Shown: positions 24,401 to 26,240 of the stretch, piece by piece | How positions within the stretch are numbered: the stretch's first letter is position 1 | Layout of the letters: each line of letters opens with the position of its first letter | Assembly: GCF_902713615.1 (NCBI RefSeq) | Contig: NC_052163.1 | Span: 44,750,878 to 44,814,877, forward strand | Reading direction: 5' to 3' | Source: Scyliorhinus canicula | Taxonomy: Eukaryota | DNA: 64,000 bases | Translations under genes and position numbers: made by a program | The notes under the pieces: generated by a model | Seen by the model: only the letters and a program-made list of their open reading frames with translations | Database searches by the model: none | Told to the model about the DNA's origin: nothing

Positions 24401-26240
24401 TCTCCAACGAGGAGTTAAAAGCGGTCACCAGGAACTGCCTGATCTGTGTGGAGTGCAAACCACACTTCTATAGACCAGACAGGGCCCACCTGGTCAAGGC
24501 TCCTAGGCCCTTTGAACGCCTTGCGATCGATTTCAAAGGGCCACCCTCCTCCACTAACAAGAACATTTATTTCCTAAACATCATCGACGAGTTCTCCCGA
24601 TTCCCTTTTGCCATTCCATGCCCTGATATGACCTCCCACACAGTCATTAGGGCCCTGCACAGTGTCTTCACCCTGTTCGGTTTCCCCAGCCACGTGCACA
24701 GCAACTGGGTTCGTCCTTTATGAGCGACGAACTGCGTCAGTACCTGCTCGACAAGGGCATCGCCTCGAGCAGGACTACCAGCTACAACCCCGGGGGAACG
24801 GACAGGTGGAGAGGGAGAATACGACGATCTGGAAGACCGTCCTACTGACCCTCCGGTCTAGAAAACTCCAAGTCTCCCAATGGCAGGAAGTCCTCCCAGA
24901 TGCGCTCCATGCAATCAGATCCCTCCTCTGTACAGCTACAAATCAAACCCCTCACGAGCGACTCTTCAATTTTTCCAGGGGCACTAACACGGGAGTCTCA
25001 CTTCCGGTGTGGCTGAGGACACCAGGCCCGGTCCTCCTGAGGAAGCACGTCAGGGGACACACGTGTCGCGTCTTTTTGTCCGACGTCACTTCGTCCAACG
25101 ACACTTCGTCCACGTCTTTTGGTCCAACATCTTTTTGTCCGCACGTCTTTTGGTCCAACGTCCTTTTGTCCAATTATCCAATTACAAATTTAGCTGGACT
25201 TACCTGGTGATTTTTCTTAACTAGAAATAACTGCAAATTATCTTCGATGTAGTGCAGTAACACAGACAATACTTGTTTAGAGTTGGAATGCTCTTATTTG
25301 ACTGTTAAGTGCATGAAACTAGAAAGTTTCCTTTCCCACAAAACTTCATAAAATGTAGCCGATTTAAGTTATTTTTAAAAATCTGCGAGGGACATGCAGA
25401 GCGTTGTCACCTCACGCCTGTGAACTTCTGTTAGTTCATTAAGGGAGGCATATGCAGGGTGTACTTGATTTTCCGGTGATTGACATTTTAAAATATATCC
25501 ATCATTTGGGGCACTGGCGCCTGGCATATTTTAATGCAAAGGTCTTTGCAAAATGTGAAATGACAGCTTTGCGTTTCGCAGATATTAAACAGATTGTCGG
25601 AAGGAACTTGGTTCCCGTAAGTACACTAACACAGCAAAATCTGAATCAATCCGTACATGATCGGAATATACATTATTCAATATAAGATTTCAACCCTCTG
25701 CTAGGTAAAGTGCAAACACCCCTCTTGTAGGAAACACATACGAAAGGTGTATCACAAGGAATGGCGTGATTATGACAAATTTCAGCATCGGTTTTCAGTG
25801 ATGTCCCCACTGCTAGTTACAGAGCCGGATCAAATTTAGACTGAGTAAATGTTCTGTTTATATAATCCCTATTTCAATAATCGCAGAGATCAACTCTGGC
25901 AATATAAGTCAAGTTACAAAAAGTCTTTGACAAAAAAAATCATCCGAGAAAAAAACGTAACAAGTCACAAAAAGTCTTTGACGAAAAAAATCATCGCACA
26001 AAATGACGTTGGACCAAAAGACGTGCGGACAAAAAGACGTTGGACCAAAAGACGTGGACGAAGTGTCGTTGGACGAAATGACGTTGGACGAAAAGACATA
26101 GCACCGGGGACACAAAACTGACCCCCTTGTTGAAAAGGTGCGCCTCCTCCATTCCAACCCCCAGTACACATTCGTGGAGTTCCCGGACGGTCGCCAGGAC
26201 ACAGTATCCCTTCGGGACCTGGCATCTGCTGGATCCAGCC
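21456..26240 (+). pseudogene. gag-pol polyprotein pseudogene of the Gypsy element
   Basis: ATG 21456 (MEAALKPGRLELDP); zinc-knuckle region CHFCGQSQH..C / CSSCGRKGHYTRVC; protease LFDSGS; RT YLDN; RNase H ESDAS/EKEAQA; integrase IDFKG..IDEFSR; several frameshifts and stops (e.g. TAG at 23353-23355 and 24103-24105); split by the insertion at 25062-26105. Confidence 0.93.
25062..26105. mobile_element. Foldback-type non-autonomous DNA transposon (probably Mutator/MULE superfamily)
   Basis: Perfect 9-bp TSD GGGGACACA (25053-25061, 26106-26114); ~105-bp TIRs made of ~15-bp tandem units (ACGTCTTTTGGTCCA-like); removal restores pol KHVRGH|KTDPLVEKV. Confidence 0.9.

Follow-up and report, generated by a model that had tools for sequence, protein, structure and literature searches.

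The window analysed here, 64,000 nucleotides of Scyliorhinus canicula contig NC_052163.1 (positions 44,750,878 to 44,814,877), holds a 1044-bp element with inverted ends built of tandem repeats and a CpG-rich interior, lodged in the integrase region of an LTR retrotransposon. An earlier note, made from the letters alone, took it for a foldback transposon of recent or foreign origin. The locus raises the question of where the ends and the interior come from and what moves them. We hold with high confidence that the element is a non-autonomous foldback Mutator-like derivative in which host DNA taken 3' of a HoxD-type cluster has replaced the transposase gene; an intact parent likely mobilises it in trans. 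It is part of a multicopy Pack-MULE-like (Pack-TIR) family in a vertebrate.

Anatomy of the element and its insertion site

The features, in window coordinates, are the following.

21226..26522, plus strand: LTR retrotransposon of Ty3/Gypsy type that hosts the element; its two terminal repeats, 97% alike, lie at 21226-21424 and 26324-26522
25053..25061, no strand: left target site duplication (TSD), 9 bp; exact repeat, empty sites in paralogs
25062..26105, plus strand: element of 1044 bp, assigned as foldback MULE derivative, non-autonomous and with host DNA inside; it contains neither a long ORF nor a Pfam match
25062..25190, plus strand: left end, attributed to the parent; 8-bp asymmetric tip and tandem-unit TIR (25070-25177), 92% identical to parent copy L228 over the first 128 bases
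25186..25190, plus strand: left capture junction; microhomology of 5 bp common to the parent subtype (L230, L234) and the donor
25186..25905, plus strand: captured host DNA from G000:C2:199575518-199578338 in four colinear blocks (25186-25271, 25268-25327, 25348-25745, 25741-25905); 15 differences in 709 aligned bases
25906..26105, plus strand: right end, attributed to the parent; duplicated block (25910-26009) and TIR (25990-26097), 93% identical to L228 over the last 203 bases, block included; the cargo/right-end junction at its start is blunt
26106..26114, no strand: right TSD, 9 bp; exact repeat, empty sites in paralogs

The TIR arms, estimated at ~105 bp in the earlier note, measure 108 nt, are 93% complementary and consist of ~15-bp tandem units in 6.5 to 7 copies per end. 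The outermost 8 bases, already seen to be mismatched, are unlike between the left and right ends. The other copies with recovered ends show this asymmetry as well, and the unequal tips are fixed across the family. The sequence GGGGACACA flanks the element in two exact copies. Nineteen other copies of the host LTR element were compared at the same position, which spans 1062 bases in the window: 16 have a single 9-base site, one has 8 bases and two could not be scored. The boundaries of the element and its perfect 9-bp TSD are therefore real. The insertion lies in the 3' part of the integrase region. It splits a host copy whose paralogs keep the empty site, so that the element is younger than the LTR retrotransposon, as had been proposed; "young" is used here in this relative sense only.

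The host element codes for gag, protease, reverse transcriptase, RNase H and integrase (the last four recognised by Pfam) in broken frames, and its terminal repeats differ at 6 of 199 bases, in agreement with the ~3% given before. Its layout from gag to integrase leaves no room for env, which makes it an LTR retrotransposon and not the provirus it had been called. The family counts 3451 candidates in the genome searched, G000. A perfect match to the DR5-type consensus for retinoic-acid receptors is found in both terminal repeats (21317-21333 and 26415-26431) and in 12 of the 19 paralogous loci (L175-L193); the host LTR family could possibly be a genome-wide supply of such sites. The gag-protease region has a 54-bp in-frame repeat at 22367-22505, and elsewhere in the window a 35-bp tandem array of ~9 copies occupies 58421-58749. 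Another copy of the cargo-bearing family (L171) sits in the reverse transcriptase region of a Gypsy-type element like that of the window.

A dispersed family of deletion derivatives

Searching G000 with the element gave 1481 candidates, with full-length copies at 94-100% identity among the 40 scored. The junction between cargo and right end occurs at at least 91 places when one mismatch or fewer is allowed, against none for the control; this count is a lower bound on the copy number of the family. Among 69 fetched loci the TSD is of 9 bp in 36, 8 bp in 19 and 10 bp in one, nine have no exact TSD and four have one end only (one place was fetched twice and three loci share flanks). The 56 exact TSDs of 8-10 bp represent 54 distinct sequences. 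The 9-bp TSD described for the window element thus holds for this copy and for the 36 loci, and the rule for the family is 8 or 9 bp. The dispersed copies are near-identical, and those fetched have 8/9-bp TSDs of their own.

After exclusion of copies with nested insertions or a missing end, 61 of the 69 copies could be aligned. They are internal deletions of a non-coding element of ~1.55 kb that form a nested series of 22 coarse architectures. The 17 copies of the 1044-bp subfamily diverge on average by 0.5% from their own majority sequence. We did not retain an absolute date: with the rate of 7e-10 per base and generation that pedigrees give (PMC10587355), this spread would amount to millions of generations. 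Four family copies (L063, L077, L079, L080) have themselves been hit by LINE or SINE insertions, one of these being a 3.4-kb LINE piece.

Public contigs of organism B show element-type junctions, hence the cargo family is not confined to one organism label. Short words shared with organisms C, D and E (D being compared with the element only and E with the donor only) came from short or low-depth pieces and were set aside as evidence for transfer or range.

The parent element and its transposase

A pattern search for the right terminus of the element found it at 1134 places in G000. The first 30 of these comprise eight long loci with transposase DNA, five deletion derivatives thereof, three copies with the Hox cargo, 13 loci with another non-parent interior and one unassigned locus. 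The long loci led to a parent element of 2.15 kb with termini identical to those of the window element, the autonomous partner for which the earlier note had proposed to search. Ten parent stretches were extended. Eight have both ends, with TSDs of 9 bp in six, 8 bp in one and none exact in one, and four of these eight keep an uninterrupted ORF of 471 aa.

The encoded protein matches the Pfam families MULE (PF10551, 4.9e-11, over the cut-off) and, at the N-terminus, FLYWCH (PF04500, 5.7e-9); it matched no solved structure. Its residues D194, D256, H280, W370 and E388 correspond to the D, D, H, W and E that Muta1 requires, and two spacings, D-H (24) and W-E (18), are identical to those of Muta1 (D283, H307, W401 and E419). 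Variable TSDs of 8-10 bp, within the 8-11 bp typical of the superfamily, together with this cognate MULE DDE transposase assign the element, at the level of sequence, to the Mutator (MULE) superfamily. The FLYWCH+MULE architecture marks the parent as Phantom/Muta1-like in domain layout; the proteins placed on the tree include no named Phantom reference. The foldback Mutator-like reading of the earlier note is borne out, with an architecture of the Phantom/Muta1 kind, and finds no support for Rehavkus, as no PHD finger was detected in the parent transposase at E<=0.01. The extra block that it reported near the right end is present, and is not peculiar to the window copy: it is the parent's own right end.

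Other candidate parents were discarded. A generic MULE profile search led to four further families (A-D), whose TIRs are unrelated and which do not match the element. The L170-type family turned out to be a sister subfamily, the closer parent being reached through the right-terminus pattern. This sister subfamily (L154-L170) shares the right terminus of the parent and differs slightly from it at the left tip; its transposase lies in opposite orientation to the termini and is ~90% identical to the parent protein. In organism D (run X11), a loose end is similar to the left tip and adjoining flank of L173, a sister-subfamily copy, and is possibly a shared insertion.

Origin of the parent lineage

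The parent transposase is 76% identical to a Palaemon protein (XP_068246463.1, on a 138-Mb contig) and 75% to an Octopus protein (A0A0L8GV05); for the sister subfamily, identity to the shrimp Palaemon and Octopus proteins reaches 78-80%. The protein search yielded 28 matches at E<=1e-30, of which the Palaemon and Octopus proteins are the nearest; the organism is named in six. In a tree of 40 rows the parent lineage and the Palaemon and Octopus proteins form one clade with 100/99 support. An AU test run on 30 rows (the 40 minus 12 dropped plus two parent rows) rejects a tree in which all G000 MULEs fall into one clade (p-AU 1.2e-6). Identity is higher than host divergence would lead one to expect and the tree is at odds with the hosts, as observed at protein level and with few named rows. 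Because its protein is 75-80% identical to shrimp and octopus proteins, the parent lineage, and not the cargo, is likely to have entered the genome by horizontal transfer among marine animals. The horizontal acquisition suggested by the earlier note would thus apply to the ends and the transposase, and fails for the interior, which is host DNA.

Vertical inheritance is the alternative that survives best, although we consider it unlikely. Active transposases are under purifying selection, which could preserve such similarity over long times, and the named hosts among the protein matches are thinly sampled. Sharks, moreover, mutate slowly (PMC10587355). Against this stand the level of identity across the protostome-deuterostome split and the remote position on the tree of the other MULE families of G000, with their single clade rejected. 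The contigs of organism F also lack TIR coverage at 80% likeness, although contigs of this kind show presence and not absence.

The captured interior and its donor locus beside the Hox cluster

The interior of the element is 97.9% identical to a TIR-less locus of G000, the C2 interval listed above. The majority sequence of the family aligns to it in three colinear blocks at 95-99% identity (15 of 1227 sites differ), and 67 family copies differ from it by a median of 2.1%. The locus was traced by a 19-base motif present in organism F and absent from the copies first compared. This motif occurs at three places in G000, namely one family copy on two duplicate scaffolds and the TIR-less C2 locus. 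A stretch found in the donor only matched nowhere but at C2 among the 40 scored of 81 candidates.

Organism F gives the outgroup state. In its public contigs, aligned to a long copy of the family, the interior is present at single-copy-like depth without TIRs. A single contig of 3088 bp reaches from the flank (1.3 kb) over the left junction and through the first gap at ~95% identity, again without TIR. At the nine fixed differences that could be scored, organism F has the donor base at six and the element base at three, so that the cargo branched from the C2 locus after the split from organism F. Both the captured part and the flank differ by ~5% in this organism, which reveals no extra conservation of the captured part. 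On these comparisons we assign the interior of the element to host DNA and not to foreign DNA.

Within 120 kb of the donor, the minus strand carries twelve Hox homeoboxes, and an Evx-like gene is also present. The nearest homeobox has HOXB1 as its best solved-structure match, and the ESM Atlas gave no name for this Hox1 exon. From their homeodomains the genes presumably belong to paralog groups 1-5 and 8-14, with tool support for groups 1 and 13. This set matches the HoxD complement of cartilaginous fishes, in which HoxD2, D5 and D14 are described (PMC5054437, PMC3707753), and the cluster is for this reason taken as HoxD-type. The cargo source lies on the 3' side of Hox1, at 4.9-7.7 kb from the end of its coding sequence.

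Loss of the ends does occur in transposons, and the family majority is close to the C2 locus. One could then read this locus as an old relic of the mobile family, deprived of its TIRs, and the interior as ordinary transposon DNA. We find this very improbable. Organism F has locus and flank on one contig, without TIR and with equal divergence inside and outside. A search of 226 kb around the C2 donor gave no parent-element match, not one parent-like base. Between its ends the parent has a transposase gene that does not resemble the cargo, and the junctions between cargo and parent ends are sharp. Capture from the C2 locus remains our reading. Neither a parent copy nor an excision scar was found beside the donor, hence the founding event itself was not seen.

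The interior has no detectable coding remnant (tblastn best E 0.11; Pfam) and no structured RNA match in Rfam. In the plant sense of the term, a Pack-MULE carries a host exon or transcript; this cargo has no ORF, Pfam or Rfam match and could still derive from a long 3' UTR or a non-coding transcript. Splicing was discarded as the reason for the missing cargo parts: these parts lack GT-AG borders on both strands, and pieces of the first gap survive in some copies. Capture of a retinoic-acid element of the Hox 3' region was discarded as well, the DR5-type site at C2:199580051 being 1.7 kb outside the cargo source and the cargo having no DR1, DR2 or DR5 site at one mismatch. In G000 the DR5-type sites of this region are at C2:199580035-199580051, 3' of Hox1, and at 199601415, between the Hox3 and Hox4 homeoboxes; a DR1-type site is at C2:199579852.

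The cargo is very probably a passenger without function, since it has no ORF, no Rfam match and no excess conservation in organism F. A more ambitious proposal is that a competent, horizontally acquired shark Mutator repeatedly captures open-chromatin DNA and has scattered a HoxD 3' regulatory flank with enhancer activity to ~100 sites. We regard it as a long shot; if true, it would represent a plant-style Pack-MULE rewiring of gene regulation in a vertebrate.

CpG content

Positions 25200-25900 hold 18 CpG (observed/expected, o/e, 0.70) and positions 39001-39900 hold eight (o/e 0.29), as first counted. The contrast is real within the window: 26 AT-rich stretches of 701 bp taken elsewhere in it have a median o/e of 0.375 and a maximum of 0.64, and none reaches 0.70. 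It was read as a sign of foreign origin. With the parent transposase being close to invertebrate proteins, it might suggest that the whole element, interior included, is recently arrived foreign DNA. This is hardly credible, and for the interior it is refuted. The donor lies inside a host Hox domain, TIR-less at C2 and present also in organism F, and the CpG level of its blocks (21 CpG in 729 bp, o/e 0.85) equals that of the window copy (19 in 709 bp). The Hox domain at C2 is AT-rich with a median o/e of 0.78, versus 0.32 outside. The CpG richness of the element is thus explained by inheritance from a CpG-rich, CpG-undepleted Hox flank, and CpG richness alone is no marker of foreign DNA.

In the dispersed copies the CpG level is decaying. 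Transitions are found at 40 of 66 CpG sites versus 71 of 388 other C/G sites (Fisher p 8e-12), presumably because the copies were methylated after leaving the Hox domain.

A proposed route for capture and spread

The junctions suggest how the derivative arose. A 5-bp microhomology between a parent subtype and the donor is found at the left junction, and the right junction is blunt, without microhomology. We privilege the hypothesis that a break within a parent copy was repaired by a template switch to the Hox flank, with the microhomology serving for the left join and a blunt join closing the right side; this route is more probable than another DNA-level capture. The founder would have taken a span of up to 2.8 kb, of which ~1 kb was lost during capture or shortly afterwards, this part being absent from all 67 copies examined. 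Its exact subtype was not found, as the known parent copies are 92-93% like the element ends.

The parent transposase would then bind the tandem units of the TIRs and cut and paste the derivative in trans. Intact ORFs and near-identical dispersed copies are indirect signs that the parent may be active in cut and paste. Interrupted gap repair may have generated the series of internal deletions, and methylation of copies moved out of the Hox domain would account for their CpG decay. The parent lineage itself would have reached the genome by transfer among marine animals, as discussed above. With the parent, the donor, the state in the outgroup, the junctions and dozens of dated copies identified, the capture mechanism, the CpG decay after departure from an unmethylated domain and any regulatory effect of the Hox-flank cargo are open to direct test.

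Relation to known systems

DNA capture of this kind has been described chiefly in plants. Plant Pack-MULEs have MULE ends, 8/9-bp TSDs and captured host DNA and are mobilised in trans. The shark family shares these traits, trans mobilisation being likely, and differs from them by its cargo of intergenic Hox-flank DNA in which no exon was found.

Merlin, hAT and P/Galileo are other superfamilies with 8/9-bp TSDs. The mixed TSDs of the family might evoke one of them, a reading we practically dismiss since elements with identical termini encode FLYWCH+MULE and Muta1 of Aedes aegypti also gives TSDs of 8 or 9 bp (PMC5225508). Further traits of Muta1/Muta5 that the same source describes are shared with the shark system: long TIRs of 12-15-bp tandem units (type 2 foldback), a FLYWCH + DDE transposase whose D-H and W-E spacings are those of the parent, and non-autonomous derivatives with heterogeneous interiors that include host fragments. 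Unlike these, the shark parent resides in a vertebrate, has a single-exon 471-aa ORF in 2.15 kb and unequal tips, and is known from sequence alone. The N-terminal FLYWCH followed by MULE and the repeat-built TIRs are also those reported for the Phantom subclass of Mutator (PMC3169594).

The closest animal precedents are the Pack-TIRs, including Ssk-FB4 (PMC8277862). They have host DNA between TIRs, microhomology at one junction, multiple copies with distinct TSDs and a donor without element at the orthologous site, and for multicopy Pack-TIRs the parent is absent near the donor; all of this is seen here at C2. As Pack-TIRs are defined by Tan et al. 2021, the shark family has non-TE host sequence between its TIRs, an identifiable donor and copies with distinct TSDs. 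Unlike Ssk-FB4, its Hox-flank cargo is non-coding. The same source reports no Pack-MULE in the reference genomes examined, and its main text does not mention sharks (PMC8277862).

Vertebrate MuDR entries exist (PMC5753468, PMC4350176), among them Ricksha, a human MuDR in Repbase (PMC5753468). Ricksha and Rehavkus (PMC6446971) share the MuDR/Mutator class with the shark element. Rehavkus is described with 9-bp TSDs, a minisatellite before the 3' TIR and a PHD finger, the latter not found in the shark parent (PMC6446971). According to PMC6446971, vertebrate MuDR entries have no match to MULE transposases and the presence of MULEs in vertebrates is doubted, unlike the shark genome with its intact MULE ORFs. 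MULEs are not described in the main text of either of two papers on elasmobranch genomes or in that of a review on vertebrate TEs (PMC11979771, 10.1101/2025.06.08.657570, PMC5381603); the supplement of PMC11979771 may list MULE annotations. Our literature searches gave no paper on shark MULEs or vertebrate Pack-MULEs. The families may be catalogued in Repbase or Dfam, which like subscription journals lay outside the search.

A second capture and other MULE families

An 886-bp family (L206 type) has 364 candidates in G000, the top 40 at 99% identity, and carries the left end of the parent on both sides. Its 402-bp interior is 98.8% identical to a TIR-less locus (L237) at 9.135 Mb of G000:C5, around which no gene was identified within 20 kb by ORF listing. 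This points to a second capture of a host fragment by the same parent, with a polarity less secure than for the Hox cargo as it rests on comparison within G000. The derivative is commoner than the Hox-cargo family, with 13 against 3 of the 30 right-terminus loci sampled. In this genome several families retain intact FLYWCH-MULE ORFs, and two high-copy derivatives can be traced to their host donors.

With the MULE profile, 150 of 993 candidates in G000 scored above the Pfam cut-off. At least four more foldback FLYWCH-MULE families, A-D (L031-L050, L090-L109), are present as elements of ~2.1 kb, many with open frames of 470-490 aa; families B-D are 53-57% alike and family A shares 34-37% with them. 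Beside a sister-subfamily derivative, L168:241-2115 contains frames that resemble a hAT-type transposase.
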